DNA from: an uncultured Thiotrichales bacterium
GTDB taxonomy: Bacteria > Pseudomonadota > Gammaproteobacteria > HK1
Assembly (NCBI GenBank): GCA_964593225.1
Contig: CAZQHJ010000026.1
Location: 1-20,405 of the forward strand
Direction: 5' to 3'
Length of the DNA: 20,405 bases
Part shown: piece after piece, positions 395-16,256 of the stretch
Layout of the letters: the number at the start of each line of letters is the position of its first letter
Numbering within the stretch: the stretch's first letter is position 1
Made by a program: the position numbers and the translations under genes
The notes under the pieces: generated by a model
Databases searched by the model: none
Told to the model about the DNA's origin: nothing
What the model saw: the letters and a program-made list of their open reading frames with translations, nothing else

Positions 395-715
395 AAATTC
401 TCCGACCAATTGCCACTTGGGATCGTCGTTTTTCTGGTTGTATAGGGAAAACGGCTGGCACGGGGCGCATCCGGCGAGGACCCTGAGCGTATTCGGATAA
501 AACTCCCGCGTCACTTCCCGGCTGGAAATGGTGGCCACGTCCCACCGTATGAAAGGCGCGTCATTGTTGGTTTCGAACGGGTGACGGCACGCCTCGTCCA
601 CATCGATCCCGCATGCTACCGGGAAACCCTCGACCTTGAACCCATGGGTCAAGCCCCCGACGCCGCAAAACAGATCGATGACGGATGCCTGCATTCTCCC
701 AGTCCTGTTGTTCAA
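377..715 (-). pseudogene. DNA cytosine-5 methyltransferase (Dcm-like) N-terminal remnant, truncated after motif IV at the MITE-like element boundary
   Basis: 112-aa ORF carrying C5-MTase motif I (DLFCGVGG, F-x-G-x-G-G AdoMet site) and motif IV (GCAPCQPFS, catalytic PCQ). The reading frame ends in ...DPKWQLVGEF|GSGSV*, where GSGSV* is encoded by the terminal inverted repeat itself. Nothing C5-MTase-like (ENV motif, target-recognition domain) continues in any frame at 1-104. Confidence 0.6.
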
Positions 716-733
716 TCGGTTTTCGACTTCCGA

Positions 734-2248
734 CTAACCCCCACCGGTAGCCGGAGAAAAATCACCCAGCAGCATCTCCGCTGCCTGCCGGGCCACGCCC
801 GTGGTCAGCGACGCGTCCAGCCCGAAATAGAGGTTCGCCGCCACCAGGAACCAGATGGGGATCAACATGCCAAGGGGCGCCTCTTCCCGTTTATCCGCGA
901 CGGCGCCCGCGGCCCCGGCGGCCGCCGGTTGAAAATACGCCGCCTCCACCACCCGCCACACGTAGACCACCGCCAGCAGGGAGCCGACGATGATGACGGC
1001 CACCACCGGCCACAATCCCTGTTCCAGGGCGGCGGAGATGAGATACCACTTGCTGATGAAACCGACGCTCATGGGCACGCCGATGAGACTGAGCCCCCCC
1101 GCCACGAACGCGGCCATGGTCCAGGGCATCCGCCGGCCGAGGCCGGCAATCCCGTCCAGCGATACGCTGCCGAATCGGTAGAACACGCTGCCCAATGCCA
1201 TGAAAAGTGCCGTCTTGATGAGGGCGTGATTGAAGAGGTGGACGATGGTGGCCATAAGTCCCGTTATGGAGGTCAGGCTGATGCCAAGCACCATGTAACC
1301 GATCTGCGCCACGCTGGAATAGGCCAACATGCGTTTCAGGTTGGTTTGGAAGATGGCCACCAGGGCGCCGGAGAGCACCGCCACCACCGCCAGGACCAGC
1401 AATATCCCATCCAGGGCCAGAGTCTTGAAAGGAAAGCTGCCGCCGAACACGGTGAACAGGAAGCGCAGCAGGACATACACCCCGACCTTGGTGGCCGTGC
1501 CCGCCAACAGGGCCGACACGGCCGATGGCGCATAGGTGTAGGCATTGGGCAGCCAGGCGTGCAGGGGAAACAACGCCACCTTGAGACCGATACCCACGGT
1601 CAGGAAGGCGAACGCCACCGCCACCGTCCGGGTATTGGAGACCGCGGGCAGGCGCGCGGCCAGATCCATCATATTGAGCGTGCCGGTCATGGCGTACAAA
1701 AAGCCGATGCCGATCACGATGAAGGTGGCCCCGATGGTGCCCATCACCAGGTACCGATAGGCAGCCATCAGGGCGCGCCGATGGGACCCGAGGGCGATGA
1801 GCGCGTAGGTGGAAAGGGAGGAGATCTCCAGGAAGACGAACAGGTTGAAGACATCGCCGGTGATCGCGATGCCCAGGAGCCCCGTCAGGCACAGCACCCA
1901 GGCGGTGTAAAAGAGATAGATGCGATCGGGTTCGATCTCCCGCTCCACGCTTTTTCCGGCGAACACCACCACCACCGAGCTGATCCCCGCCACGATGAGC
2001 AGAAGAAAGGCATTGATGGTATCGACCCGGTATTCGATGCCCCAGGGCGCCGCCCAACCACCGAGGGCGTAGGAAAGGGGGCCCGTCTCGCGCACCGTGT
2101 GGAGCAATACCAGGGCGATGACAAACGCGGTCCAGCTCGCGGCGGTGGCAACCAGCCACGCGAGCTTGGGACGATGGACAAGGAGGCAGACGGGGGCCGC
2201 AATCAACGGGATGACGACCTGGAGCGCGGGGAGATGTTGTTCAATCAT
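734..2248 (-). CDS. mrpD: Proton-pumping antiporter-like membrane subunit, MrpD/MnhD (NuoN/NuoM/ND2 family), 504 aa
   Basis: Polytopic membrane protein whose composition and helix pattern are typical of the complex I antiporter-like family. Start ATG overlaps the stop of the upstream mrpC-like gene (ATGA), indicating translational coupling. The name MrpD versus NuoN rests on the adjacent MrpC-like gene. Confidence 0.8.
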   Translation of the reverse strand: MIEQHLPALQVVIPLIAAPVCLLVHRPKLAWLVATAASWTAFVIALVLLHTVRETGPLSYALGGWAAPWGIEYRVDTINAFLLLIVAGISSVVVVFAGKSVEREIEPDRIYLFYTAWVLCLTGLLGIAITGDVFNLFVFLEISSLSTYALIALGSHRRALMAAYRYLVMGTIGATFIVIGIGFLYAMTGTLNMMDLAARLPAVSNTRTVAVAFAFLTVGIGLKVALFPLHAWLPNAYTYAPSAVSALLAGTATKVGVYVLLRFLFTVFGGSFPFKTLALDGILLVLAVVAVLSGALVAIFQTNLKRMLAYSSVAQIGYMVLGISLTSITGLMATIVHLFNHALIKTALFMALGSVFYRFGSVSLDGIAGLGRRMPWTMAAFVAGGLSLIGVPMSVGFISKWYLISAALEQGLWPVVAVIIVGSLLAVVYVWRVVEAAYFQPAAAGAAGAVADKREEAPLGMLIPIWFLVAANLYFGLDASLTTGVARQAAEMLLGDFSPATGGG

Positions 2249-2634
2249 GATGGTTTCGAGTCGGGTTCTCGGGCTTCGAGCCTTTCTATCTTGTCTTCCT
2301 CCACCGACCCGTAGGCCGCTCGGATGCGGATCACCAGGGCAAGTCCCAAGGCCGTGGTCGCGACGCTGACCACGATGGCCGTGAGGATCAAAACGTGGGG
2401 CAAGGGGTTGGCGTAGTGGGGAATCCCTTCGGCAAGAATGGGCGCGGTGCCCCCTTCCAGCTTGGCCATGGAGATGTAGAAAATGAAGACGGATGTCTGG
2501 AAAACATTAAGACCAATGATCTTTTTCACAAGATGATGGCTTGCGATGGTCGCGTACAAACCGAGCATCATGAGCACGATCACGACCCAGTAGTTGAATA
2601 GACCGTTGAATAGGTCGAATGCGGTGGTAAGCAA
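2245..2634 (-). CDS. mrpC: Cation:proton antiporter subunit C (MrpC/MnhC, NuoK-like), 129 aa
   Basis: Three-TM small protein with the conserved GGTAPIL...DPLPQ/HVLILTAIV core recalled from MrpC/MnhC (NuoK paralogue). Coupled to the downstream MrpD-like gene. Confidence 0.75.
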   Translation of the reverse strand: MLTTAFDLFNGLFNYWVVIVLMMLGLYATIASHHLVKKIIGLNVFQTSVFIFYISMAKLEGGTAPILAEGIPHYANPLPHVLILTAIVVSVATTALGLALVIRIRAAYGSVEEDKIERLEAREPDSKPS

Positions 2635-2889
2635 ACTTCCGAACTCCGTTTAACTGTAACAGATAGAATAGGAATGATATCATGAGGCTATGTCGAACGA
2701 CACGGATTCTGACGCTCGAAAGTTGTTATGTAAAAGTCCGGGTTGTGCTCGAAAGCCAAGGCGCCATGGATGAAAGATTGGGGGCGAAAAAGCCGAGTTT
2801 ACACGGCGTCGATGAGCCTCTACCCGGATTCCCACGTAGCCGGTTAGGGCGCGGGACGGATTTTGCATAGGGCCCCGGATAGTAATACT

Positions 2890-4215
2890 ATGGCAACCAT
2901 CACCCGACCACTGCGCACCATTGCGCTGTTTCTACCGCTTCTCCTGTCCTTCCTACCCGCCCTTGGCGCGCCGCCCCTATCCCCGCCCCCCGTGACGGAA
3001 ATCGATCGCATCGTGGCCGTTGTCGGCGATGATGTGATTGTGGCAAGCGAGCTCGACAGCCGCATTCGCACGATCCTGACGGAAATGCGCCAGGGTAGCG
3101 CCAGTGTGCCCTCGGCCTCCCCGGCGCTTCGGAAACAGGTTTTGGAGCGTCTGATCCTCAATCTCTTGCAGGTCCAGGTGGCCAGGCGCGCGGGCATTCG
3201 GGTCGACGATGAACGGCTCAATCGGGCGATTGCCGGTATCGCCCGGAGAAACGGGCTGAAACTACGCCAATTTCGTGAAGTCCTGGAAAAAGACGGCTAC
3301 GATTTCGCCTCGTTCCGGAAAAGCATCCGGGATCAAATGATGATTACGGAGATACAAAAGCGTCGCGTGGCCAACCGTGTCCAGGTAACCGATCGGGAAA
3401 TCGATGATTACCTCTCGACAAAGGCCCGACAAGGCGAGACGGGGAATGCGTACCATCTGGCCCATATCCTCATCGCGGTAGAGGACAGCACCGACGCAAA
3501 CCAAGTCGCCGGCGCTCGTAAGAAGGTCGAAAGGGTCATTCGCGAGCTGCGCGCCGGCGCGGATTTCACCCGAATGGCCATGACACTCTCCGATGGCCGA
3601 CAGGCCTTGGAAGGGGGCGATCTGGGTTGGCGCAAGGAGAAACAGTTGCCCAGTCTGTTCGTCGACGTTGTCCCCAAGATGGGGGTGGGCCAGATCAGCG
3701 ACCCGTTATGGAATTCCAGTGGATTTCATATCCTCAAACTCGTTGACCTACGAGGGCGAAAACGTCACATAATTACCCAAACGAAGGCCAGGCATATCCT
3801 GGTGCGAACGAATGAAATCACTTCGAATACCGACGCAAAAACCCGGCTTGAACAAATCCGGGAGCGCGTCGTCCAGGGGGAGGACTTCGAGGAGCTGGCC
3901 AGATCCCACTCCGATGATCGCGGAACAGCCATCAAGGGGGGCGATCTCGGGTGGGTGGGCCCGGGGGATCTTGTCTCGCGATTCGAACAAGAAATGAACA
4001 AGCTCCGGCCCATGACGATCAGCACGCCGTTTCGTACCCAGTTCGGATGGCATATCGTGCAGGTGCTCGAACGTCGCAAACACGACGGGACCCGGGAGGT
4101 GCGCCGGGCCCAAGCCAGGAAGGAGATCCGGGAGCGCAGGATCAATGAAGATCTCGAGGCTTGGCTGCGTCAGCTGCGGGATGAAGCGTATGTGGAATAT
4201 CGATTGGAAGGGTGA
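2890..4215 (+). CDS. surA: Periplasmic chaperone / peptidyl-prolyl isomerase SurA (N-terminal chaperone domain plus two parvulin domains)
   Basis: Signal peptide MATITRPLRTIALFLPLLLSFLPALGAPP. SurA N-domain (IDRIVAVVGDDVI...ERLILNLLQ). Two parvulin PPIase domains (AHILI...GGDLGW... and ARHILV...GGDLGWV...). The track ORF starts at 2863; the ATG at 2890 gives a more typical signal peptide, so the start is uncertain by 27 nt. Confidence 0.85.
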   Translation: MATITRPLRTIALFLPLLLSFLPALGAPPLSPPPVTEIDRIVAVVGDDVIVASELDSRIRTILTEMRQGSASVPSASPALRKQVLERLILNLLQVQVARRAGIRVDDERLNRAIAGIARRNGLKLRQFREVLEKDGYDFASFRKSIRDQMMITEIQKRRVANRVQVTDREIDDYLSTKARQGETGNAYHLAHILIAVEDSTDANQVAGARKKVERVIRELRAGADFTRMAMTLSDGRQALEGGDLGWRKEKQLPSLFVDVVPKMGVGQISDPLWNSSGFHILKLVDLRGRKRHIITQTKARHILVRTNEITSNTDAKTRLEQIRERVVQGEDFEELARSHSDDRGTAIKGGDLGWVGPGDLVSRFEQEMNKLRPMTISTPFRTQFGWHIVQVLERRKHDGTREVRRAQARKEIRERRINEDLEAWLRQLRDEAYVEYRLEG

Positions 4216-4497: not shown

Positions 4498-5415
4498 ATG
4501 CACCGCGCCACCCTCTTTGTAGAACAAGCCGAAATCCTCTCCCGAGAAAGCTTCCAGGGCGATCGGATCATCCTGCGGATCGCCGCGCCGCGCATCGCGG
4601 CGGCAGCGCTGCCCGGCACATTCCTCCACGTGCGCTGCGACCCGGAACGCCCCATGCGAAGGCCGATCTCCCTCATGGCCGCCGAGCCGGCCAGTGGCAG
4701 GCTCACGATTCTGTTCAAGGTGGTCGGCAAGGGGACCGAACGCCTTGCCGCCAGGGCGGTGGGGGATGTGCTGGATATCATCGGGCCCATAGGCACCGGG
4801 TTCCGACCACTTGAGGACCGTCCCCGCGCGCTGCTCGTTGGCGGCGGCCTTGGAATCCCCCCCATGGTGTTCCTGGCCGGGTGGCTCGCCCAAGGAGGCC
4901 AAACCTCGAAAAGGGCAGGGGAGGGAGGAGGGGGGGCGTCCCCCGCCCAACCCGCCGCTTACCGACCACTCCTCTTGATGGGGTCCGAAATACCCTTTCC
5001 CTTCCATCCCTGTCCCTCCCGCCTTCCCGTTCCCGCGCCGGATGGCGTCACCGCCGCCATGCCCCTCATGGAAGCGCTGGGCATACCCAGCCGCCTCGCC
5101 AGCCGGCGGGGTTATCCCGGCAGCTTCAATGGATGGGTCACGGCGCTGGCGCGGACCTGGCTCATGGCGCAACCTCCCGGCGCATACCGGGACATCGCGT
5201 TATATGCCTGTGGCCCCGAACCCATGTTACGGGCCACCGCCCACCTTGCCCGGGAATACGACCTGCCGTGCCAGGTCTGTTTGGAGGAATTCATGGCCTG
5301 CGGGGTCGGCGCCTGCGCGGGGTGCGCCGTTCCGGTCACAACCCCGGCGGGCGTCGCCATGAAGCGGGTCTGCGTGGATGGGCCGGTGTTCGATGCCGGG
5401 GAGGTTTTCGGTTGA
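4498..5415 (+). CDS. PyrK-family FAD/NAD(P)-binding oxidoreductase with C-terminal [2Fe-2S] cluster (dihydroorotate dehydrogenase electron-transfer subunit-like), orphan
   Basis: RRPISL...(FAD binding), LLVGGGLGIPP (NAD binding), C-terminal C-x-C...CGVGACAGC...VCVDGPVF are all typical of PyrK and related sulfide-dehydrogenase/GltD partner subunits. No catalytic partner gene is adjacent. Confidence 0.65.
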   Translation: MHRATLFVEQAEILSRESFQGDRIILRIAAPRIAAAALPGTFLHVRCDPERPMRRPISLMAAEPASGRLTILFKVVGKGTERLAARAVGDVLDIIGPIGTGFRPLEDRPRALLVGGGLGIPPMVFLAGWLAQGGQTSKRAGEGGGGASPAQPAAYRPLLLMGSEIPFPFHPCPSRLPVPAPDGVTAAMPLMEALGIPSRLASRRGYPGSFNGWVTALARTWLMAQPPGAYRDIALYACGPEPMLRATAHLAREYDLPCQVCLEEFMACGVGACAGCAVPVTTPAGVAMKRVCVDGPVFDAGEVFG

Positions 5416-5835
5416 AAGTGCCTTATGCAAAGGCATTGCCGACTTTCACGCTCTGAATTACGGAAGGATACATTGCTATATCGTACCGACCTGGAGGAGG
5501 CCTATGGCGAAAAACCGAGCCTGGGCACCCATGGGGGGGCGGTGTTTGGGTTTGAGCGCCTGGTGTGGGCATGATTCCGCTGACTGAAATCACGTGGTCC
5601 CCCTTTGCCGGACGAAGCATGTTCGGAAGACACTCAGGTCGTGGTCGAGTTTCAATACGCTCTCGAACTTCGACCGCTTCTCACAACCAATAAGGACAAC
5701 CTCTTCTTAAATATATCCTAAAGATCTTTCCCTTCGGTGGGGATGACAGTTGTATTTCACTGTGAAATTAAGATGGAACGAGCCACTACGGCATTTCGGC
5801 AATCTCCTCGAAACCTGCCTCGCTTTTCGAAGCGC

Positions 5836-6230
5836 CCGGAAAACTTTCCAAGTGCCCCGGCATACTTTCCGTGGATCTCGGATGGTTTTCCCCGATCCCG
5901 GGAAAGCCTTCCCGAGTCACGGGCAACCTTTCCCGGACCCCTGGCAAGCTTTCCCGCCGTCCCGGAAAGCCTTCCCGGATCGCCGGAAAGTTTCCCCGGG
6001 ATCCGGTAAATCTTACGCAAGGTTCCGGCGGGTCTGCCGAGTATCCGGTTCGCTTTCCCCATGATCCCGGCAGACCCGCCGAAGGTCGAATCCGGCTTTC
6101 CCGAGTTCCCGGCAATTTTCCGAGGTTCCGGTCAATCCCGCCCGGTATCCCGGAAAAGCTTCCGGCCTACCGGTGAAAGCCCTCCGGCATCGGGCCAATC
6201 CCACCGAGGGTTCGGGAACGTTTTCCTCGT
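5836..6230. repeat. Array of ~18-20 degenerate tandem repeats of 20-22 bp, with 10-11-bp sub-period; consensus approx. TTTCCCGG-N3-5-CCGGAAAGC
   Basis: TTCC(C)GG / CCGGAA motifs recur at 5846, 5866, 5887, 5909, 5929, 5950, 5972, 5990, 6023, 6054..., spaced 20-22 bp apart, with half-sites about every 10.5 bp. All six reading frames stay open across it, so it is a stop-free repeat rather than a gene. Lies immediately upstream of the flotillin start at 6270. Confidence 0.6.
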
Positions 6231-6269
6231 CCTTGCCCCGCAGGGCCGAGATGGCCGAACAACTGGGAG

Positions 6270-7814
6270 ATGGAACAGATGTGGAGTGAAATAATTTCTT
6301 ACCTGATTTTCGCGCTGGCGATCGTGTTGGTGTCGTTCGTGGTGTTTATCATCAAGAACTATCGGGTTATCGGGGCCAATGAGGTCGGCATTATCTCCGG
6401 CATTTTCCGAAGACAACGAATCCCCGAGACCGGGAAGATTAGGAACTATACCCTCCTGACGGGTGGCGGCGTGCTTGTCTGGCCCGTGATCAACCAATTG
6501 AATATCCTGAGCCTGGCGCTGCGAGAGATAAAGATAGATTTGGATGTTAGAACCAAGGAATACCTCCCGCTGAAGTTGACTGTCGTATTGGTATTTCACA
6601 TCGATGGCCATGGCGATCGATTGCATGTTGCCGTGAGCCTTTTTACACAAAGAACCGACCCGGACGACCAATTCGTCGAGGATTTACTGATGGGCAGTCT
6701 TCGAGACGTCATCGCGGGCATGTCCTACCATGAGCTACACAGGGAACGGGGTCGCCTCGAGGAGGAAACCCAGGGGTTCGTTCAAGGGAGATTCGACGAG
6801 TTGGGGCTGAAGGTCACCAGCCTCGTTATCCAAAATTTGACGCCAAAGGAGATTCCCCAAGACAAAGACGATTTTTGGGCCGTCAAGGCAAGAGAGGCCA
6901 TGGCGGAGATCATGCGGGAGACGGACAGTAATATTGCGCAGCAGGATAGCCTGAAAGAATCGGCGCTTGCGAAGGCTGACGCGGAAAAAGCAATCAATGT
7001 TTTCAACTCACGGAGAGATGAGTTTATCGCCGCGGCAGAGACCAGGAAAGAACAAGAGATCTCCCAACGCAATCTCGACCGGGATGTTTTCATTAATGGA
7101 CAAAAAGCGCAGGAATCGGAGGAGTCTCAAAAGAAGGAAACGGAAAGAAACATCGGGATAGTAGAGCAAGAGACGCGGAAAGCGATGGAAATTGCCAAGC
7201 GTGAAGCAGCGCGAGATATCAGAATCAAGGATGAGGAGGCGTTGCGGGACGAAGTTTGCAAAGAACAAGAACGCATCGAGGAAACCAAACTCAAAAAAGA
7301 GTCGACGCGAGCCGAGTCCGAAGTTGCCAAGGTTCGGGCAGACAAGCAAATCAAGTTGGAGACGGAAGACGCAAGAAAGCTGGAAAGCCTCCGGGAAAAC
7401 GAGATCACACGGGAAATCGATACCAACAGGGCGGCGATCCAGCAGGATATCGGCGTGGCGCGAAGGGATGCCGAACGCCAAATCAAGGTGGCGAGCATCA
7501 ATGCCGCGCGGGACGAGCGGCTACGCGAGCAGGAGACGGAAAGGGAGATCGTGGAGAACAAGAAGGAACTCTTGAAAACCCGAGACGAGATGAAGGCCAT
7601 CGAATTCGATACCAATGTCAGATCCCACCGGGCCGAGCTCGTGCCGCCCGTACTGGCGGAGAAGGAACAACAGGAAACCCAGGCGAACATCAAAAAGGCC
7701 GTGTTGGTCATCGAATCGTTGGCGCGCCTCTCCGCCGCCGAAAACGATCGCAACGCCAAGGCCTTCGAGGCCGAAGGCAACCTCCGTCTGGTCCAGGCGG
7801 AAGCGGAGGGGTAA
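6270..7814 (+). CDS. Flotillin (FloT/YuaG-like SPFH/band-7 protein): N-terminal TM anchor, SPFH domain, long E/A/K-rich coiled coil. Terminated by an in-frame TAA at 7812-7814
   Basis: Architecture and local motifs match bacterial flotillin: TM, then KNYRVIGANEVGIISG, TGGGVLVWPV, LRDVIAGMSYHELHRER, then long EA-rich heptads. RBS GGGAGA precedes the ATG. The conserved flotillin C-terminus continues in the same frame after the TAA. Confidence 0.8.
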   Translation: MEQMWSEIISYLIFALAIVLVSFVVFIIKNYRVIGANEVGIISGIFRRQRIPETGKIRNYTLLTGGGVLVWPVINQLNILSLALREIKIDLDVRTKEYLPLKLTVVLVFHIDGHGDRLHVAVSLFTQRTDPDDQFVEDLLMGSLRDVIAGMSYHELHRERGRLEEETQGFVQGRFDELGLKVTSLVIQNLTPKEIPQDKDDFWAVKAREAMAEIMRETDSNIAQQDSLKESALAKADAEKAINVFNSRRDEFIAAAETRKEQEISQRNLDRDVFINGQKAQESEESQKKETERNIGIVEQETRKAMEIAKREAARDIRIKDEEALRDEVCKEQERIEETKLKKESTRAESEVAKVRADKQIKLETEDARKLESLRENEITREIDTNRAAIQQDIGVARRDAERQIKVASINAARDERLREQETEREIVENKKELLKTRDEMKAIEFDTNVRSHRAELVPPVLAEKEQQETQANIKKAVLVIESLARLSAAENDRNAKAFEAEGNLRLVQAEAEG

Positions 7815-8276
7815 AAGGCAAAACTCATTGCCGACGCCGATGGCCTCAAGGCGCAACTCTTTGCCCAGGTCGATAGCCGAACGGCCCTGGCCGATGCCTT
7901 GAAGGAGGTGGATGACGCGACCAAGTTTTTCCTCTTCTTCAATGAGACCCTGGAACAGTTCCCCGAGATCCTCCGCGCCCTGGTGGGCGAACCCGGGCTG
8001 GCGGGCGTATTCGGGGAGATCGCAAAACCTCTCGGACAAATCGACAGCATCCGAATCGTCGATTTTGCCGGACAGAATGGCGCCGCTTCCCGCCTCTCCG
8101 AACTGGCGGAGGTCAGCCCTCGGATCGTCTTGAACTTCCTCTCCAAATTCCAGGCGGCCGGTTTCGGCGATATCATCAAAAAGCTTGGGATCTCCAACGA
8201 ATGGCTCGAAGAATTTGTGGAAAAAAAGGTCGGCGCGCCGGGCGATACGTCGAACGGCCCGACAACGGATCGATAG
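7815..8276 (+). CDS. C-terminal portion of the same flotillin, in frame downstream of the TAA (track ORF 7899-8276 is its internal-Met version)
   Basis: Same frame as 6270-7814. Sequence KAKLIADADGLKAQLFAQ...LPE...PLGQIDSIRIVDFAGQNGA matches my recollection of the flotillin C-terminal block (…AAIFDMIVKMLPE…PLSNIDKITVVDTGG…). Confidence 0.6.
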   Translation, partial: KAKLIADADGLKAQLFAQVDSRTALADALKEVDDATKFFLFFNETLEQFPEILRALVGEPGLAGVFGEIAKPLGQIDSIRIVDFAGQNGAASRLSELAEVSPRIVLNFLSKFQAAGFGDIIKKLGISNEWLEEFVEKKVGAPGDTSNGPTTDR

Positions 8277-8285
8277 CGCATCGTC

Positions 8286-9542
8286 ATGAATCGGACAACA
8301 CACGCCAATGCCCCGCCGGGCGAGAGAATCGACTCCCTGATGCGGTTCCTGTGGTGGTGCTCCGGGGCCGTCGTCTCCATGCTGAAAGACTACCCAACCG
8401 AATACAGCAAATATTTCGGGATAGGCGGCGCCATCTTCACCACCTGGTTGCTGGCGACCATCAGCGGCATCTATGCCTTCTACACCATGATTGGGAGTTA
8501 CTTTGTCGCGATTCCCATTGGCATCGTCTGGGGCTGGGTCATCTTCAATCTGGACCGGTTCATCACCTCCAGCATGAAAAAACCGGGCAACGAGATCGAC
8601 GAGGCCTTTTTCTCCGAACGCATCGGGGCCTTTCTCTCGGAATTCCTGCCGGCGATTCCCCGTATTCTGATTGCCGTGATCATCGGTTATTCCATCTCCA
8701 TTCCCCTGGAACTGCGGTTGTTCGAGTCCGAGGTGCTGGAACAGGTAAAAGAGATCGAAAAGATCGAGATGCAGCGGTACGTGGAGCGACTGCGCCAGGA
8801 ACGGGACAAGGTCATCTCTTCCCTCAAGTCCGAACGCGTAGCATTGAAACAGGAAGAAGACGAACTGCGCGAGGAATACGGACGCGGTCGGGAAGAAATC
8901 GCGCGCATGGAAGAACGCATCAAGGGACTTCGGCGGGAGTTGCAGGCCGATCTTGAAGAACACGCCTCGAAGATCACGGCGTTCCAGGCGGAAATAACCG
9001 GAACTGGCGGAACCGGACTGCCGGGCTATGGCAAAGTGGCGGGCCTCAAGGAGGATTTGATGAAAAAAACCGGCGATTGGTATCAGTCGAGCCAGGATCA
9101 AACCATGAAAAGGATCGAATCCATGGGTCAGCGGATTCTGGAGATCAACGGACGCCATAACCAATCCGCGCTCCGGCTCGATAGGCAGCTAACAGGTATC
9201 GAAACCGAGATCGAAAAAGCCAAGGAAGCGTTCGAGAAAGAGAAAGACAGGGTCCACGAAGAAGGCATGCGCCACGGGTTCCTGACCCAGGTCAAGGCGC
9301 TCTATCGGGTCTCGGCCCAGGAAGGCAACGAGGCCATCGAATGGGCGCACACCATCTTCGTGCTCCTGATCATTCTGGTGGAACTGGGTCCGATCATCGT
9401 CAAGCTGCTCTCGCCACGCGGACCTTACGATGCGCGGGTCGACCGTGAAAACAAGTTGGCGATGATCGGCATGGATAATGATGTGATTAAAGAACGTTCG
9501 ATAGCCATTCGAAATAGAAGAACCGGGAAGCACTTGACGTGA
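8286..9542 (+). CDS. DUF4407-like membrane protein: N-terminal multi-TM region, ~200-aa coiled coil, C-terminal TM helix
   Basis: N-terminal RFLWWCSGAV...YFGIGGAIFTT...NLDRFITSSMKK matches my recollection of the conserved DUF4407 (PF14362) N-terminus; this is unverified. ELRLFESEVLEQ...coiled coil. IFVLLIILVELGPIIVKLL C-terminal TM. Sits 10 bp after the flotillin stop. Confidence 0.6.
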   Translation: MNRTTHANAPPGERIDSLMRFLWWCSGAVVSMLKDYPTEYSKYFGIGGAIFTTWLLATISGIYAFYTMIGSYFVAIPIGIVWGWVIFNLDRFITSSMKKPGNEIDEAFFSERIGAFLSEFLPAIPRILIAVIIGYSISIPLELRLFESEVLEQVKEIEKIEMQRYVERLRQERDKVISSLKSERVALKQEEDELREEYGRGREEIARMEERIKGLRRELQADLEEHASKITAFQAEITGTGGTGLPGYGKVAGLKEDLMKKTGDWYQSSQDQTMKRIESMGQRILEINGRHNQSALRLDRQLTGIETEIEKAKEAFEKEKDRVHEEGMRHGFLTQVKALYRVSAQEGNEAIEWAHTIFVLLIILVELGPIIVKLLSPRGPYDARVDRENKLAMIGMDNDVIKERSIAIRNRRTGKHLT

Positions 9543-9567
9543 ATTCCGGCTAAATAGAGGAAATCGT

Positions 9568-11424
9568 GTGACACAAAAACAGAATCCTATCCCGGAGCGA
9601 GAGAAATCTTCCGGTCATCCTTCCGAGGTTCACCAACTAAAGGAAAAGTTGGAACAGGAGGTCTCCAATCTGAAAGAGGCAAATAATAGGGTATCGAAAA
9701 AACTGACGGTTTTCCCAACATTCACGATGTTGCTTTTGGTGACGATATTTCTTCTATTTATTTCCTCTGTCGTCGTGAATGACATACGTATGGCCAGGCA
9801 GATAGAAAACCGGATAGAGCTATCCAAAGGCGAGATAGAATCCTCGCTAACGGATGCCATCACGCATGATATGCTGGGTGAAATAGCGAAAATACAAGAT
9901 ATATCCGATGGCGCCGCACTGATCGAAAGATTATATAAAATCGCTGAAGAAACCAATCAACAGCTGAAAGATAAAATCAGCCGAATAGAATTTCAGCAGA
10001 ATATGATTGTCGATGGCGCGCAAGGGGCCCTGGAGAATATGTATTTTATATTCACCGCGGTGGCGGCCTTGTTTTCCCTCCTCGGCATTTACTTTGCCTA
10101 TCGGCATATTCACTTGGAATCGAAAAAGGAGGAATCACAGGAAAGGCACGACCAGGAAATGAGAGGCCTGGTGGGATCATTCCAGAACAACATCAATACA
10201 ATCAATTCTCTGGTGGCCACATTGGAGAAAAGCTACGCATATAGACAAATTGTAGAAGAGCAAATAGAAGAACTAAAAGAAGATGCCTCTTTATTCGAGA
10301 AGCGTCACAAGGAAGATGAAGAAAAGTTTCGTCAATCCATTGCTGAGCTCAACGCTAATGCGGTAAGGCTCTACAAAGCAAATATCTCCAGAACCACGTT
10401 GAATCAGGAGGAACGAAGGCGAGAGTTGAATGCTTTCGCTAACCGGATGAGCAATATGGAATCCAGTCGCGACATAGCAAGCGATATAAATCCCTTCTGT
10501 TATTATATGCGCGGATTGAGCCATGTCGCCAACTATAGATTCATGGATGGAATTAGGGATCTGGAAACTGCCTATAAAAAAGGCACGGACGATTTGTCAG
10601 GAATAAAAGAAGAAAACTATGCAGGGGAGCACATAATCCGTATACGCGAAGATCTAAATAAGATGCTCGTTGACGCGTGTTACTTTCAGGCCAATTCCTA
10701 TAAGAATCTGGGAAAATATAAAGAGAGTATTGCCAAGTTCTCCGAGGCCATTCGGCTCGATCCCAAACACCTGGACTCACTTGTTACCAGAGTACAGGTG
10801 ATGTTCTTCGATAAAGATGTCCCATTTGGAGCGGTTGAAGAAGAGTGTGAAAAACTGGATCGGGCATTCAATTCGTTCAGTGATGCGGACGTTGACGAGG
10901 CTGCCTTGAAAGAGGCGAAAAAATTCCTGAAACTTTACCAGGGAAATATGTATTTAAGTAAGGAGAAGCGACTCTTGCCGAAATTCCGTGCCGCATATGA
11001 GAAGTATGAGGATAAGGCGAAGGCACTGGAATTCTACGGGCAGGCATATGATGATTCTCCATCGGCTCGCCCTGCCTTTGCCGTTGCGCAGGCTATGGAG
11101 GGCGTTGGGCCATCCTCCTGGAGAAGGGGAGAAACACCGGAGAAGATGTATGAACGAGCAATAACAAAACTAAAGGATAGGGTAACACACGACCACGACC
11201 TCATATATTCCGTCATGTTGTACTATATGTTGGCCATTTGCGCGTGCAATCTACCGAGGAGAAAAGAAAGCGCGGAAATGTACTTATCACAAGCGCGACA
11301 GTGTTTAAAAGAGTTGCCTGGCGATATCACTTACTTCTCGCCCATGAACAAAATCAGATTGAAGCGGGCGGAAATATTGGAAGAAATGAACGAATTCGAG
11401 CGATCTTTTATAAAAAATAGTTGA
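9568..11424 (+). CDS. Hypothetical 618-aa membrane protein: two TM helices bracketing a ~90-aa loop, then coiled coil and TPR-like C-terminal repeats; markedly AT-rich gene
   Basis: GTG start with RBS AGAGGAAA. TM1 VFPTFTMLLLVTIFLLFISSVVV and TM2 MYFIFTAVAALFSLLGIYFAY. TPR-like ANSYKNLGKYKESIAKFSEAIRLDPKHLDS. GC is visibly lower than the flanks. 26 bp downstream of the DUF4407-like gene. Confidence 0.65.
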   Translation: MTQKQNPIPEREKSSGHPSEVHQLKEKLEQEVSNLKEANNRVSKKLTVFPTFTMLLLVTIFLLFISSVVVNDIRMARQIENRIELSKGEIESSLTDAITHDMLGEIAKIQDISDGAALIERLYKIAEETNQQLKDKISRIEFQQNMIVDGAQGALENMYFIFTAVAALFSLLGIYFAYRHIHLESKKEESQERHDQEMRGLVGSFQNNINTINSLVATLEKSYAYRQIVEEQIEELKEDASLFEKRHKEDEEKFRQSIAELNANAVRLYKANISRTTLNQEERRRELNAFANRMSNMESSRDIASDINPFCYYMRGLSHVANYRFMDGIRDLETAYKKGTDDLSGIKEENYAGEHIIRIREDLNKMLVDACYFQANSYKNLGKYKESIAKFSEAIRLDPKHLDSLVTRVQVMFFDKDVPFGAVEEECEKLDRAFNSFSDADVDEAALKEAKKFLKLYQGNMYLSKEKRLLPKFRAAYEKYEDKAKALEFYGQAYDDSPSARPAFAVAQAMEGVGPSSWRRGETPEKMYERAITKLKDRVTHDHDLIYSVMLYYMLAICACNLPRRKESAEMYLSQARQCLKELPGDITYFSPMNKIRLKRAEILEEMNEFERSFIKNS

Positions 11425-11505: not shown

Positions 11506-12993
11506 GTGAACAAAAACGCCAACCTATACACACAATTCACCCATCACTTCCCCGAGGACCGCTCCCGAATCGTCATCGGGACGCCCACCGGGCAAAGCCG
11601 GTCCTATGGAGAGCTGGAACACCGGAGCGCCCGCCTTGCCAACCGCCTCACGGGGCTCGGCATCGGCAAGGGGGACCGGATTGCCGTCCTGGTGGAAAAA
11701 TCCCCCGAAGCGCTTTTCCTATATCTCGCCTGCCTCCGGGCCGGGATCATCTACCTGCCGCTCAATACCGCCTACCGATTACCGGAAATCGATTATTTCT
11801 TCTCCGACGCGGAGCCCAAGGCCGTGGTGTGTCGGCCCAAGGCATGGGAAGAGATCGCCCCACTGGCGGCGCGACACGGAATCGGACAGGTCCTTACCCT
11901 GGGAGAAGAAGGGGAGGGGACGCTTATCGAGATGGCCGGATCGGGTGATTCGGAATTCGAGACGGTCCCTTGCAAGGAAGAGGAAATTGCGGCCATCCTG
12001 TACACCTCCGGCACCACCGGACAGCCCAAGGGCGCCCTGTTGACCCACGGGAATCTTGCTACCAACGCGCTTACGCTAAAAAAGGCGTGGCGTTGGACCT
12101 CATCCGATGTGCTGCTCCATGCACTGCCGCTTTTCCATGTACACGGCCTCTTCGTGGCCTGCCATTGTGTGTTGATGAGCGGGGCCAGGATGTTCCTGCT
12201 GCCAAGGTTCCATGTGGATTCCGTATTGGCCCGGCTACCCCAATCGACGGTGTTCATGGGCGTGCCCACCTATTACAGTCGGCTATTGATGGAACAGGAA
12301 TTCGACGCCGATGCCTGCCGCGCCATGCGCCTGTTTATCTCGGGATCCGCGCCATTGCCGGAAAACGTCTTCCATGCCTTCCGGGCGCGTACCGGCCACG
12401 CCATCCTGGAACGCTACGGCATGACGGAAACCCTCATGAATACCTCCAACCCCTACGATGGCGAGAGAAAACCCGGTAGCGCCGGACCGGCATTGCCGAA
12501 TGTCGGTGTGCGCATCGTCAATGCGTCACCGGAAGGGGTTGGGGACATCCAGGTCAAGGGGCCGAACGTCTTCAAGGGATACTGGCGTCTGCCGGAAAAG
12601 ACCGCGCAGGAATTTACGTCGGATGGTTGGTTTCGGACCGGCGATCTTGGGACCCTGGACGAGGCGGGATACCTCTTTATCGTCGGTCGGGAAAAGGATC
12701 TCATCATCACCGGCGGCTACAATGTCTATCCCCGGGAGGTGGAACGCGTCCTGGATAGCATCGATGGTATACGGGAGTCGGCCGTCATCGGCCTGCCCGA
12801 TGTGGATTATGGGGAAAGGCTAACCGCGTTTGTGATACTTGAGCCAAATCGGAAAACCATCACTGCGGAAGAAATCATTGCCATGCTAAAACAGTCCATC
12901 GCAAACTATAAAGTGCCCAAACAGGTACGGTTCATCGACGAATTTCCCAGAAACGCCATGGGAAAGATCCAAAAAAATTTGCTGCGCCATTAG
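11506..12993 (+). CDS. AMP-dependent acyl-CoA synthetase/ligase, malonyl-CoA synthetase (MatB)-like, 495 aa
   Basis: AMP-binding motif I LYTSGTTGQPKGALLTHGNL, YGMTET, TGDLG...GREKDLIITGGYNVYP, and C-terminal K of the ANL superfamily. GTG start preceded by GGGAAAG. Confidence 0.85.
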   Translation: MNKNANLYTQFTHHFPEDRSRIVIGTPTGQSRSYGELEHRSARLANRLTGLGIGKGDRIAVLVEKSPEALFLYLACLRAGIIYLPLNTAYRLPEIDYFFSDAEPKAVVCRPKAWEEIAPLAARHGIGQVLTLGEEGEGTLIEMAGSGDSEFETVPCKEEEIAAILYTSGTTGQPKGALLTHGNLATNALTLKKAWRWTSSDVLLHALPLFHVHGLFVACHCVLMSGARMFLLPRFHVDSVLARLPQSTVFMGVPTYYSRLLMEQEFDADACRAMRLFISGSAPLPENVFHAFRARTGHAILERYGMTETLMNTSNPYDGERKPGSAGPALPNVGVRIVNASPEGVGDIQVKGPNVFKGYWRLPEKTAQEFTSDGWFRTGDLGTLDEAGYLFIVGREKDLIITGGYNVYPREVERVLDSIDGIRESAVIGLPDVDYGERLTAFVILEPNRKTITAEEIIAMLKQSIANYKVPKQVRFIDEFPRNAMGKIQKNLLRH

Positions 12994-12996
12994 GTG

Positions 12997-13216
12997 CAGG
13001 GCAACCGAATGAAACTGTTTTCCAATTGCCATTGACGTATTTTGTTGCCGGAACATAGCCCTTTTGAGGAATTCGAAGGCAAGTTCGAAGCTTGGTCTCC
13101 TTACTATCGATAGTCAAAACCGGGCGATTTCAACTAAAACGGGCTCTGTTGGACACCGGAAACACCTCCATTTGCCAGATTTGTCAATATAAAAATACTT
13201 TCATTCGGTTGCCCTG
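12997..13216. mobile_element. MITE: 220-bp AT-rich non-coding element with perfect 18-bp terminal inverted repeats CAGGGCAACCGAATGAAA (12997-13014 / 13199-13216), flanked by a 10-bp direct target-site duplication CCATTAGGTG (12987-12996 and 13217-13226)
   Basis: All read directly from the sequence. The left duplication copy contains the TAG stop of the acyl-CoA synthetase gene. No ORF in the interior; the imperfect inverted repeat extends to ~26 bp. Confidence 0.6.
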
Positions 13217-13591
13217 CCATTAGGTGTAGCATTCCATGAAATTCTGATAAACTCTGTTTTTCGGGAACAAAGCCGGGAATACCGGATTGTGCTTCCGACT
13301 AAGGCAAGAATGCGCGAGAGAGCTGCGTTTACGAAAGGTAAGTGGGCATTTCCTCGTATCTTCAACGCACTCAGGGAGTACAGATGGATTTGTATATCGC
13401 TTATTTTCATTCATAATAAGCTTTATCCGCCCTCGTGTGTAACTTTTTTCCGGCAAGCTATTGATTTTCCGAATGCCGTTTTTTAGCATGGACCGAAGAT
13501 AATGGCGCCGGAAAAAAGTTGCACGCGAAAGTTTTTCCGTATAAAACTTGTTTTCAATCAATTTTCCGTTAACTAACGATGGAGACTGCAA

Positions 13592-14059
13592 ATGCCTACT
13601 TTCGTTCGTACCGAAAAGTGTGACGGCTGCAAGGGGCAAGACAAAACCGCTTGCATGTACATTTGCCCACACGATCTCATGAAGTTGGACAAGGATGGGA
13701 CTGATACCGGTAACGCCATGAAGGCCTACAACCAAGAGCCGGAGCAATGCTGGGAGTGCTACTCCTGCGTGAAGATTTGCCCGCAAAACGCCATCGAATG
13801 CCGCCACTACGCCGACGTCGTACCCCTCGGTGGCTCCGTACAACCCCTGCGCGGTACCGATTCCATCATGTGGACCATCAAGTTCCGTAACGGTACACTC
13901 AAGCGCTTCAAATTCCCCATCCGCACCACCCCCGAAGGCTCCATCGACCCCTACAAGGGCAAGCCCGCCGCCGAGATGTCCAAAATCGAAGAACCCGGTT
14001 TCTTCTGCCAGGAAAACGGTTTCCGGGCCGGCGATCGCAGCGAGTTGATTTGCCTGTAG
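13592..14059 (+). CDS. aprB: Adenylylsulfate (APS) reductase beta subunit AprB (2x[4Fe-4S])
   Basis: MPTFVRTEKCDGCKG...CMYICP and CWECYSCVKICP cysteine clusters, plus the conserved AprB C-terminal tail (MWTIKFRNG...RFKFPIRTTPEGS). RBS GGAGA. Confidence 0.9.
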   Translation: MPTFVRTEKCDGCKGQDKTACMYICPHDLMKLDKDGTDTGNAMKAYNQEPEQCWECYSCVKICPQNAIECRHYADVVPLGGSVQPLRGTDSIMWTIKFRNGTLKRFKFPIRTTPEGSIDPYKGKPAAEMSKIEEPGFFCQENGFRAGDRSELICL

Positions 14060-14124
14060 ACAAGGGCCCTCGCGCTTACAGTTGGGTAAATAATTAAATT
14101 AAAAACCATTCGAGGATCAAAGTA

Positions 14125-16116
14125 ATGTCTGATGGTATTTTTGGTAATCCCCAGGTTATCGAGGAAGAGGTCGATATCCTATTGATTGGTGGTGGTATGG
14201 CCTGTTGTGGTGCCGCCTTTGAAATCATGCGGTGGCTCGAAGCCGAGGGCAGTGGCCTCAAGGTAAAGTTGGTCGACAAGGCCGCCATGGATCGCTCCGG
14301 CGCCGTGGCCCAGGGACTGTCCGCCATCAACACCTATATCGGTACAGAGCAGGATCCCGCCGACTATGCCCGCATGGTCTCCAACGACCTCATGGGCATC
14401 ACCCGCGACGATTTGGCCTATGATCTCGGTCGCCATGTGGACGAATCCGTGCATCTGTTCGAAGAATGGGGCCTGCCCATTTGGAAGACCGACGAAAACG
14501 GCGAGCGTCACGATGGCTCCAAGGGTCTGCCCGCGCTGAAAGACGGCGGCAAACCCGTGCGTTCCGGTAAGTGGCAAATCATGATCAACGGTGAATCCTA
14601 CAAGTGGATCGTCGCCGAAGCCGCCAAGAAGGCGCTGGGTGTGGACAACATCCAGGAGCGCGTCTTCATCGTCAAGCTGGTCAACGACAAAAACAAACCC
14701 AATCAGGTCTGTGGCGCGGTCGGTTTCTCCGTTCGCGAAAACAAGATCTATGTCTACAAGTTCAAGGCCTGCCTACTGGCCGCCGGTGGTTGCGTGAACA
14801 TCTTCCGTCCGCGTTCCGTGGGCGAAGGCACGGGCCGCGCTTGGTACCCCGTCTGGAATTCCGGTTCCACCTACTCCATGGCCGCCGAGGCCGGCGCCGA
14901 GCTGACCATGATGGAAAACCGCTTCGTGCCGACCCGCTTCAAGGACGGTTACGGTCCGGTAGGCGCTTGGTTCCTGCTCTTCAAGTCCGTTGCGACCAAC
15001 GCCTTGGGCGAGCAGTATATGCAACGCAACAAGGAGATGCTGGACGACTATCCGCCCTATGGCAAGGCCGCCGTCCCTGCTTCCTGCCTGCGTAACCACC
15101 TCATGCTCAAAGAGATGAAGGAAGGCCGCGGTCCCATCTACATGGATACCGTCACGGCGCTTGCCAATCTCCGCGAAACCCTGAGCCCCCGCGAGGTCAA
15201 GCACCTGGAAGCCGAGGCATGGGAAGACTTCCTGGATATGTGCGTCGGTCAGTGCGGTATCTGGGTCGGTGAAAACATTGAGCCCGAGAAGAAGAACTCC
15301 GAACTCATGCCCACCGAGCCCTACCTGCTGGGTTCCCATTCCGGTTGTTGCGGCATCTGGGTCTCCGGTCCCACCGATGTCGGTGCGCCCACGGCGGAAA
15401 AAGAAAGCGGCATTCCCTCCCATCTGCCCTCCGGCTGGAACTGGGGTTACCGCTCCATGACCACCGTCAATGGTCTCTTCACGGCTGGCGATGGCGTTGG
15501 CGCCTCCGGTCACAAGTTCTCCTCCGGCTCCCACGCCGAAGGTCGCCTGTGCGCCAAGTCCATGGTCAAGTACTGCGTGGACAATAAGGACTACAAACCC
15601 GAGATGGATACCCCGGTGCAGGAACTGGTGGATGCCATTTATCAGCCCGTCAAGACCTACCTGGAGTTCAAGGACTACACCACCGCCATCGACGTGAACC
15701 CCAACTACATCACGCCGAAGATGCTGCAATTCCGTCTGCAGAAGATCATGGACGAGTACGTTGCGGGTGTGGCCACCTACTACACCACCAACGAGCATAT
15801 GCTGGCGGTTGCCGAGGACAAGCTGGAGATGCTCAAGGAAGACGCGGCCAAGATGCGCGCCAAGGACCTGCACGAACTGCTGCGGGCCTGGGAGAACTAC
15901 CACCGCATCCTGACGGCTGAAGCCCACATGAAACACATCCAGTTCCGCCAGGAAAGCCGTTATCCCGGTTTCTACTATCGCGCGGACAAAAACTTCGTGG
16001 ACGAAAAGAATTGGAAGTGCTTCGTGAACTCCATCTACGACAAGAGTACCAAGAAGTGGACCTGCTTCAAGCGCGCCCACACGGATCTGGTCGACAAGTC
16101 GAAGCTGTTCAAGTAA
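14125..16116 (+). CDS. aprA: Adenylylsulfate (APS) reductase alpha subunit AprA (FAD flavoprotein), 663 aa
   Basis: FAD fingerprint DILLIGGGMACCGAAFE. Length and motifs match the AprA / fumarate-reductase flavoprotein family. Immediately downstream of aprB, with RBS GAGGA. Confidence 0.9.
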   Translation: MSDGIFGNPQVIEEEVDILLIGGGMACCGAAFEIMRWLEAEGSGLKVKLVDKAAMDRSGAVAQGLSAINTYIGTEQDPADYARMVSNDLMGITRDDLAYDLGRHVDESVHLFEEWGLPIWKTDENGERHDGSKGLPALKDGGKPVRSGKWQIMINGESYKWIVAEAAKKALGVDNIQERVFIVKLVNDKNKPNQVCGAVGFSVRENKIYVYKFKACLLAAGGCVNIFRPRSVGEGTGRAWYPVWNSGSTYSMAAEAGAELTMMENRFVPTRFKDGYGPVGAWFLLFKSVATNALGEQYMQRNKEMLDDYPPYGKAAVPASCLRNHLMLKEMKEGRGPIYMDTVTALANLRETLSPREVKHLEAEAWEDFLDMCVGQCGIWVGENIEPEKKNSELMPTEPYLLGSHSGCCGIWVSGPTDVGAPTAEKESGIPSHLPSGWNWGYRSMTTVNGLFTAGDGVGASGHKFSSGSHAEGRLCAKSMVKYCVDNKDYKPEMDTPVQELVDAIYQPVKTYLEFKDYTTAIDVNPNYITPKMLQFRLQKIMDEYVAGVATYYTTNEHMLAVAEDKLEMLKEDAAKMRAKDLHELLRAWENYHRILTAEAHMKHIQFRQESRYPGFYYRADKNFVDEKNWKCFVNSIYDKSTKKWTCFKRAHTDLVDKSKLFK

Positions 16117-16162: not shown

Positions 16163-16188
16163 CCGTGGGCAATGGGTCCGGTGACTTG

Positions 16189-16226
16189 AAAAAACCGGGT
16201 GCCGGAAAGCGCCCGGTTTTTGTTTA
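16189..16226 (+). terminator. Rho-independent terminator after aprA (A-run, 8-bp GC stem CCGGGTGC/GCGCCCGG with loop CGGAAA, then TTTTTGTTT)
   Basis: Stem-loop followed by a T-run 73 nt after the aprA stop. The A-tract before the stem makes it potentially bidirectional. Confidence 0.65.
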
Positions 16227-16256
16227 TGAATGGGTTCCAAGGGATCCCGATGAAAA

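Follow-up and report, generated by a model that had tools for sequence, protein, structure and literature searches.

A flotillin-DUF4407-TPR gene module in Candidatus Kentrum eta and its relationship to NfeD-flotillin operons

Operons that couple an NfeD-family gene to a flotillin are textbook knowledge, and what bacterial flotillins hold or organize is still debated. In the NfeD2-SPFH2 operons, such as yuaF-floT/yuaG of Bacillus subtilis and yqiJ-yqiK of Escherichia coli, the flotillin combines a membrane anchor, an SPFH domain, a Glu/Ala-rich coiled coil and a Flot domain. These operons are well established, with YuaF as the operon partner of the flotillin YuaG/FloT (PMC2636767). Here, we describe a three-gene module on a 20,405-nucleotide contig (hereafter the window; contig CAZQHJ010000026.1 of assembly GCA_964593225.1) in which a flotillin of the same layout is followed by a DUF4407 protein and by a 618-residue protein with two transmembrane (TM) helices and a TPR domain. 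The DUF4407 protein is 100% identical to a UniRef entry of Candidatus Kentrum eta, a bacterial symbiont of the ciliate Kentrophoros, and the contig is present in several ENA and Logan assemblies.

Like the NfeD2-SPFH2 operons (PMC2636767), relatives of the window locus carry a YuaF-like protein with a C-terminal NfeD domain directly upstream; unlike those operons, the clade to which the window belongs has a third tightly coupled gene, DUF4407, after the flotillin. Kentrum departs further from the described arrangement: NfeD is missing, a gene for the 2TM/TPR protein is added, and in the window the flotillin is split by a stop codon. Our preferred reading, held with somewhat more confidence than doubt, is that positions 6270-11424 are one co-inherited membrane module, a Kentrum derivative of a wider NfeD (YuaF-like)-flotillin (SPFH2)-DUF4407 operon with a scaffold-client-adaptor mechanism. 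That wider operon is so far undescribed. The literature searched (on SPFH, NfeD, defense and DUF4407) yielded no description of a conserved DUF4407 partner of flotillin or of the TM-TPR family, in keeping with the claim of novelty that an initial annotation of this DNA had made for the composition of the module.

Gene neighborhoods illustrate the unit. A flotillin gene lies directly upstream of DUF4407 in eight of the nine closest DUF4407 neighborhoods, the window included (Table 1), and its stop codon overlaps the DUF4407 start in L010, L011 and L012. In the window, the open reading frame (ORF) coordinates leave 9 nt (8277-8285) between the flotillin C-terminal part and DUF4407, and 25 nt (9543-9567) between DUF4407 and the third gene, so that the same-strand, closely spaced layout first noted for the three genes stands. 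Kentron sp. FM has the three genes in an identical order amid different flanks; DNA similarity between the two Kentrum species is limited to the three module genes, the upstream intervals and flanks being unrelated. In a neighbor-joining tree (built without bootstrap), all flotillin-linked DUF4407 proteins group in a single clade, within which P0006 and P0007 are nested.

Elsewhere in the family, the pairing is rare. Among distant DUF4407 proteins (<=36% identity) from species-representative genomes, mostly Bacteroidota, a flotillin occurs within 8 kb in 1/80 loci, and that locus is on the same contig as L011. Metagenome loci at the same distance have a flotillin near DUF4407 in 0/80 cases, 55 of which had at least 1.5 kb of upstream sequence. 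The 118 immediate neighbors scanned from 72-74 of the 80 genome loci include 158 Pfam families, none seen more than four times; unlike the window clade, most DUF4407 members (Bacteroidota, Acidobacteriota) stand alone without a conserved neighbor. The flotillin-DUF4407 link is clade-specific: the pair is conserved among unrelated bacteria, but within a single DUF4407 clade. Cohesion of the module, proposed at the outset from the window alone, is borne out by this co-localization: the eight of nine closest neighborhoods, the Kentron sp. FM triplet and a TPR-protein relative in locus L179, to which we return below.

A YuaF-like NfeD gene precedes the flotillin in six of the eight flotillin-linked loci (L008-L012 and L177). 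The upstream genes of L008-L012 are homologous to each other, with a TM region and a C-terminal domain of ~70 residues, and a profile of that region matches the nuclear magnetic resonance structure of B. subtilis YuaF (PDB 2k14; E=6e-7) as well as two other NfeD-type chains. Pfam NfeD matches to these genes are weak (E=0.005 and 0.05) yet at the right position, and the L177 gene has a precomputed faint match to NfeD_TM. The presence of NfeD ahead of flotillin in these relatives therefore defines the wider and ancestral unit as NfeD, flotillin and DUF4407. Within the NfeD-like genes, tandem DNA repeats (L177:3294-3370, 24 bp x 3.2; L011:1515-1554, 15 bp x 2.2) encode acidic, Asp/Glu-rich linkers.

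Kentrum is the exception. When the YuaF-like profile was run as a six-frame hidden Markov model (HMM) search, the best match in the window had an E of 0.42 and the Kentron sp. FM loci gave no hit, which disposes of a divergent NfeD hidden in the window or in Kentron sp. FM and means that Kentrum lost NfeD or never received one. The DUF4407 gene itself was also considered as a divergent NfeD and rejected: its model is all-helical, and neither Pfam NfeD (PF01957) nor the YuaF-like profile finds a match in the window. The absence of NfeD reported initially is thus real but local, and the conclusion once drawn from it, that the system is noncanonical for lack of NfeD, falls away.

In place of NfeD, Kentrum has a 2TM/TPR protein, and relatives of this protein are likewise associated with DUF4407. 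The layout of this 618-residue protein comprises a cytoplasmic N-terminus, TM1, an outside loop of ~85 residues, TM2, a long helix and a C-terminal TPR-like solenoid built of tandem motifs. Its TPR motif is called by Pfam at E=2.5e-6, and the first assignments of SPFH, DUF4407 and TPR domains to the three genes all hold (Pfam E=2e-16, 2e-63 and 2.5e-6). Describing all three products as coiled-coil scaffolds was an overstatement for this one, in which the TPR solenoid is the confident part. A word-indexed search found only two relatives, and the protein might have passed for an orphan; an exhaustive HMMER search overturned that view with 37 cluster representatives at E<=1e-30, mostly of 520-600 residues and aligned from TM2 to the C-terminus. 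The family is thus one of ~550-residue proteins with two TM helices and a TPR domain.

Two relatives are informative about context. P0140 (L179, from a genome of 32% GC) is 29% identical to the 618-residue protein (blastp E=1e-77), and its locus contains, in order, a TM-TPR paralog (560 residues), a 709-residue coiled-coil protein, a DUF4407 protein (363 residues, E=4e-48) and a TM-TPR protein (601 residues), the last being the match to the 618-residue protein. In the tree, this DUF4407 protein sits far from the flotillin-linked clade, so the association of DUF4407 with TM-TPR proteins recurs in a distant DUF4407 lineage. The cluster (L179:2941-14028) is adjoined by a phage-type integrase, an HTH_17 protein and a PemK toxin, which suggests carriage on an integrative element. 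P0122 (L093) is 41% identical to the 618-residue protein and is followed by a 512-residue coiled-coil protein with a sub-threshold match to the Flot C-terminal domain (E=8e-4).

The window flotillin has a clear SPFH/Band_7 domain (PF01145, E=2.1e-16, 60.9 bits against a cutoff of 23.6, residues 33-197) and a Glu/Ala/Arg/Lys-rich coiled coil; its ORF could alternatively begin at 6279. Unlike B. subtilis FloT, it scores far below the equivalog cutoff of the NCBIfam FloT model NF058507 (80.1 vs 700 bits), and by sequence it is a flotillin-family member rather than a FloT equivalog. The full-length ortholog in Kentron sp. FM finds human flotillin-1 and -2 as its best PDB matches (E=1e-10). Hydropathy shows an acidic seven-residue N-terminus (no Lys or Arg, two Asp or Glu), a TM helix at residues 8-26 and then KNYR; under the positive-inside rule, this would give an external N-terminus and a cytoplasmic SPFH body. 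The SPFH body of FloT and YqiK has the same orientation.

What had been taken for a single flotillin gene is in fact interrupted by an in-frame TAA, missed initially, that splits it into parts of 514 and 153 residues. The Flot domain is consequently not on the same polypeptide as the SPFH domain: it resides on the detached fragment past the TAA (PF15975, E=1.5e-6, 28.8 vs 27.0 bits). In Kentron sp. FM, the ortholog is a single intact ORF of 678 residues in which the codon aligned to the TAA is CAA (Gln), within ...AEADGQKAKLIADADG..., and the difference therefore reflects a C-to-T nonsense mutation. The TAA is identical in four assemblies; as these are identical across the whole module, they offer no independent population evidence for it. 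UAA is a stop codon and not a recoding codon, and programmed read-through is unlikely.

The DUF4407 protein matches PF14362 with E=2e-63 and 214.9 bits (gathering cutoff 31.3) along positions 2-296 of the 297-position profile, and so shares with the family at large the full HMM length, along with the motifs FNLDR, PR, PLE, a Gly-rich tip, E..P..K and GPYD. An AlphaFold2 model built with 80 homologues has a mean confidence (pLDDT) of 92.6 and shows a short N-terminal helix, then TM-length helices at 37-69, 72-96 and 109-145. The third of these continues into a 92-residue helix (147-238) that ends at a conserved Gly-rich turn (E236, GTGG...); a 77-residue return helix (250-326) and a fourth TM helix (~349-375) follow. 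Helices 147-238 and 250-326 form an antiparallel hairpin of ~180 residues, which bears out the initial description of TM helices at both ends and a long coiled coil.

Conservation and charge add detail to this model. Sixteen positions are invariant in the 80 homologues (G47, T53, A64, I86, F87, N88, D90, R91, P125, R126, A130, P140, E142, E366, P369 and Y381), and the polar residues among them, N88, D90, R91, R126, E366 and Y381, cluster at one membrane face. Across the same homologues, the TM2-TM3 loop carries a net charge of +3.2 and the post-TM3 segment -1.6; by the positive-inside rule, both termini and the TM2-TM3 loop are predicted to be cytoplasmic, with the hairpin outside. The flotillin-linked clade differs from DUF4407 at large in having a longer cytoplasmic loop, uniformly 25-26 residues between TM2 and TM3 vs 12-20 in most others, and the Kentrum hairpin exceeds the family median by ~50 residues. 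No solved structure is related to DUF4407 by sequence, and by fold only generic hairpins are found. Likeness to the extracytoplasmic or periplasmic alpha-hairpin proteins EnvC and the HlyD/EmrA adaptors, and to the pore-former or translocator hairpins AhlB/C and IpaB, is that of a generic coiled coil (identity <=15%, mostly with large root-mean-square deviation); the DUF4407 TM architecture differs from theirs, and there is no sequence relationship.

These features can be assembled into a mechanism. Anchored by its N-terminal helix, flotillin would oligomerize at the inner membrane, on its cytoplasmic side, to form an SPFH ring or cage, and the membrane patch within the cage would hold DUF4407 as a dedicated client. 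Contact between the two would involve TM segments and the 25-26-residue loop typical of the clade; together with the polar cluster, this loop would face the cytoplasm, while the long hairpin probably reaches into the periplasm. An adaptor, which may be NfeD or, in Kentrum, the TPR solenoid of the 618-residue protein, would engage the C-terminal region of flotillin and control assembly. In Kentrum eta, where the flotillin is cut before its Flot domain, the cage-closing C-terminal part would be detached, and the module should therefore be either impaired or reliant on a split scaffold.

The same logic, a cage around a patch with an integral-membrane client, operates in HflK/C-FtsH and other SPFH cage-client assemblies; here it is a prediction. 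Unlike in HflK/C-FtsH, the proposed client is a non-enzymatic hairpin protein with four TM helices rather than a protease, and unlike that of HflK/C, which is periplasmic, the SPFH body here would be cytoplasmic by the positive-inside rule. A flotillin assembly is represented in PDB entry 9l3g, with 22 chains each of flotillin-1 and flotillin-2, and SPFH domes are described in PMC12624060. FloA-NfeD stabilizes client proteins in Staphylococcus aureus (PMC11222466). As to physiological role, envelope or membrane maintenance is the most likely assignment, although we hold it loosely, and a role in conflict is the main alternative.

Several points weigh against the scaffold-client-adaptor reading. 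Physical contact and membrane topology are predictions, and expression of the module is presumed. If the hairpin is periplasmic, it sits on the opposite side from the flotillin cage, so contact would be limited to TM segments and loops. The sample of close relatives is small, at nine neighborhoods of which two are sister species, and P0006, although a member of the flotillin-linked clade, is preceded by a TPR_12 protein and not by a flotillin. For the L179 and L093 coiled-coil proteins that occupy the flotillin position, searches for an SPFH domain (Pfam, SPFH-profile hhalign, phmmer against the PDB and a homologue search) were negative or sub-threshold. Finally, with flotillin interrupted and NfeD absent, the window copy may be nonfunctional.

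Should the preferred reading hold, a flotillin coupled to one specific integral-membrane protein would make a natural scaffold-client pair. Intact versions of the operon (e.g., L011/L013 and L177) could be expressed, purified and imaged, and the Kentrophoros symbiont copy, as a partly degraded instance, matters less. The module also offers a first functional handle on DUF4407, for which there is a high-confidence model and no solved relative, and on the ~550-residue 2TM/TPR family.

Of the alternatives, the most serious, though doubtful, is a membrane conflict or anti-phage system of the abortive-infection type, in which a sensor or adaptor (TPR, NfeD or TIR-NfeD) would control a cage that restrains or deploys DUF4407 as a membrane-perturbing effector. 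In L008 (362-1780), a TIR domain (TIR_2, E=8e-22) is fused N-terminally to the NfeD-like membrane protein and matches the PADLOC defense models SAVED-TIR (4e-14) and ThsB (1e-6). Together with the integrase, HTH_17 and PemK genes near the L179 cluster, this fusion raises the possibility that some SPFH assemblies serve bacterial conflict systems. Other context clues point the same way: the L010 operon lies between a PNP_UDP_1 protein (1460-2611; PDC-M60C 2e-18, CBASS PN-type effector 1e-12) and a response-regulator-CHAT protein (16183-17062), L177 adjoins a 1773-residue AAA_16 protein, distribution is patchy and genomic context differs between the sister species. The non-significant fold matches of DUF4407 also include alpha-pore-former and translocator hairpins.

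These clues are single anecdotes, however, and in L010 they lie several kb from the operon. In PADLOC-DB v2, the flotillin parts and the 618-residue protein match no family, and DUF4407 has coiled-coil-level matches only, to LmuB and JetC (E 2e-4 to 4e-3); no window protein matches a PHROG family. Membership of the window proteins in known defense systems was rejected on these grounds. Neither the DUF4407 nor the TPR family was found in viral contigs, and the search of plasmids gave no TPR-protein match and one weak match for DUF4407 (27% identity over 37% of the query). The flanks are housekeeping genes in L012 and in the window, the window has no mobility genes or tRNA, and across the broad DUF4407 family the genes stand alone in ordinary surroundings. 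A bolder form of the idea, in which the NfeD/TIR/TPR-flotillin-DUF4407 set is an unrecognized membrane immune or abortive-infection system whose SPFH cage restrains the DUF4407 effector until a sensor or adaptor releases it, strikes us as improbable; if true, it would be a bacterial counterpart of SPFH (HIR)-associated immune signaling in plants.

It is also unlikely that the Kentrum eta block is a decaying relic of an NfeD-flotillin-DUF4407 operon, no longer a unit, whose remaining genes drift or serve unrelated roles. The nonsense codon in flotillin, the absence of NfeD, the repeats (described below) that fill the space where NfeD would sit and the symbiotic habit of the host all lend themselves to that explanation. 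Selection argues otherwise: comparison with Kentron sp. FM gives dN/dS values of 0.20 for flotillin, 0.22 for DUF4407 and 0.085 for the TPR protein gene, with dS near or beyond saturation, and DUF4407 and the TPR protein gene are intact. The low ratios indicate that the module has been under purifying selection and that the nonsense mutation is probably recent. Even the detached C-terminal part of flotillin is 82% identical to its ortholog, with a dN/dS of 0.14 and no further stop or frameshift over 153 codons. Moreover, flotillin is intact in the sister species, whose identical three-gene arrangement also lacks NfeD, so that loss of NfeD predates the split and has been tolerated.

Composition bears on the last alternative. 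At the third codon position, GC content (GC3) is 0.67 for the flotillin N-terminal part and 0.72 for both its C-terminal part and DUF4407, within the 0.60-0.84 of other window genes; the lower total GC of flotillin arises from codon position 2 (GC 0.34), reflecting its Glu/Ala/Arg/Lys-rich coiled coil. The 618-residue protein gene is the sole compositional outlier of the module (GC 0.44, GC3 0.50), and the description of the block as a lower-GC island applies to this gene but not to flotillin or DUF4407. Its ortholog in Kentron sp. FM (L094:5397-7232) has a GC3 of 0.46, and since low GC3 is found in both species despite saturated dS, it has been maintained and does not mark a fresh import. Horizontal acquisition, also proposed initially, accordingly retains the synonymous-site deviation of one gene and loses the rest of its basis. 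A recently imported low-GC island with an NfeD-independent flotillin system of a new type is thus very improbable: the composition of the third gene, the different flanks in the two species and the lack of NfeD at either Kentrum locus are set against flotillin and DUF4407 with the GC3 of neighboring genes, related loci that do carry NfeD, the persistence of low GC3 in the third gene and, in the window, no tRNA, no integrase or transposase domains among the genes scanned and no direct repeats bounding the module.

Table 1. Features of the window and of the related flotillin-DUF4407 loci
Feature	Location	Strand	Details
SurA	2863-4215	+	
PyrK-like Fe-S flavoprotein	4498-5415	+	
Gene-free interval, 854 bp	5416-6269		No gene called in public assemblies
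Phased array, 21-bp units, 42-bp super-period	5814-6233		Tandem Repeats Finder (TRF), autocorrelation
Three-gene module (flotillin, DUF4407, 618-residue TPR protein)	6270-11424	+	
Flotillin N-terminal part, 514 residues	6270-7814	+	Anchor residues 8-26, SPFH/Band_7, coiled coil
In-frame TAA nonsense codon	7812-7814	+	Sequence and translation
Flotillin C-terminal part, 153 codons	7815-8276	+	PF15975 Flot; same frame as N-terminal part
DUF4407 protein, 418 residues	8286-9542	+	PF14362
618-residue protein	9568-11424	+	Two TM helices and TPR domain
AMP-dependent ligase	11506-12993	+	
aprB and aprA	13592-16116	+	
P0002, Kentron sp. FM	L005		75% identity to window; flotillin 678 residues, intact; 611-residue third-gene ortholog downstream
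P0003	L008		50% identity to window; flotillin; TIR-NfeD fusion upstream
P0004	L009		42% identity to window; flotillin; NfeD-like upstream
P0008	L010		Flotillin; NfeD-like upstream
P0009	L011		Flotillin; NfeD-like upstream
P0013	L012		Flotillin; NfeD-like upstream
P0016	L177		Flotillin; NfeD-like upstream

Upstream of the module, the gene-free interval occupies the position of the NfeD-like gene (225-286 residues) in related operons and contains the phased repeat array that the initial annotation had recognized. TRF gives a period of 21 with copy spacings that are multiples of 21, and autocorrelation is strongest at lag 42, then at 21 and 63 (z ~10-12 vs shuffles); each unit has dyad symmetry and follows the pattern CCCGGAAA-N3-TTTCC. 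An array also lies upstream of the flotillin in Kentron sp. FM, again dyad-symmetric with period 21 and super-period 42, and with 10 copies exactly 21 bp apart, but the two arrays have no sequence in common, being GGAAA/TTTCC-based in the window vs TTCGAA-based in Kentron sp. FM. No comparable array was found in the non-Kentrum module loci.

As 21 bp is about two helical turns, this spacing and the dyad symmetry would suit recognition of the array, along one helix face, by a dimeric DNA-binding protein. The array was rejected as an RNA or promoter element: the interval has no Rfam family at gathering score, with sub-threshold noise only, and scans for sigma-70, terminator and sigma-54 consensus sequences did no better than shuffles. 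Given the position of the interval and the repeat-encoded acidic linkers of NfeD relatives, an origin of the array as a relic is possible. Several of its frames are open and give 7-residue repeats. Two observations speak against a coding heptad repeat or a relic of an NfeD acidic linker: the array has no called gene, and neither a peptide pattern nor DNA similarity is common to the two species.

The surroundings of the Kentron sp. FM locus have repeats of their own. At L005:864-1717 (the same in L094 and L095), the array (1239-1467) is flanked by nested inverted repeats of ~190 bp (864-1051 and 1557-1717), and a hairpin with 53-nt arms is located at 1043-1153; together these features resemble a structured or mobile element. 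Downstream, two assemblies of this species diverge at a 100-bp tandem repeat (2.1 copies, 100% match; L094:10086-10293 and L095:7868-7974).

Elsewhere in the window, a short ORF of 105-112 residues at 377-715 on the minus strand, near nuoN-like and nuoK-like genes, matches PF00145 DNA_methylase and is apparently the remnant of a truncated C5-methyltransferase. A 577-residue ORF without a family match (581-2314, plus strand) is an antisense shadow of the NuoN-like gene (734-2248, minus strand) and not a gene. Upstream of aprB/aprA, a gene-free stretch of 598 bp (12994-13591) has 43% GC vs 56% for the whole window, and constitutes a second AT-rich patch that is unrelated to the module.

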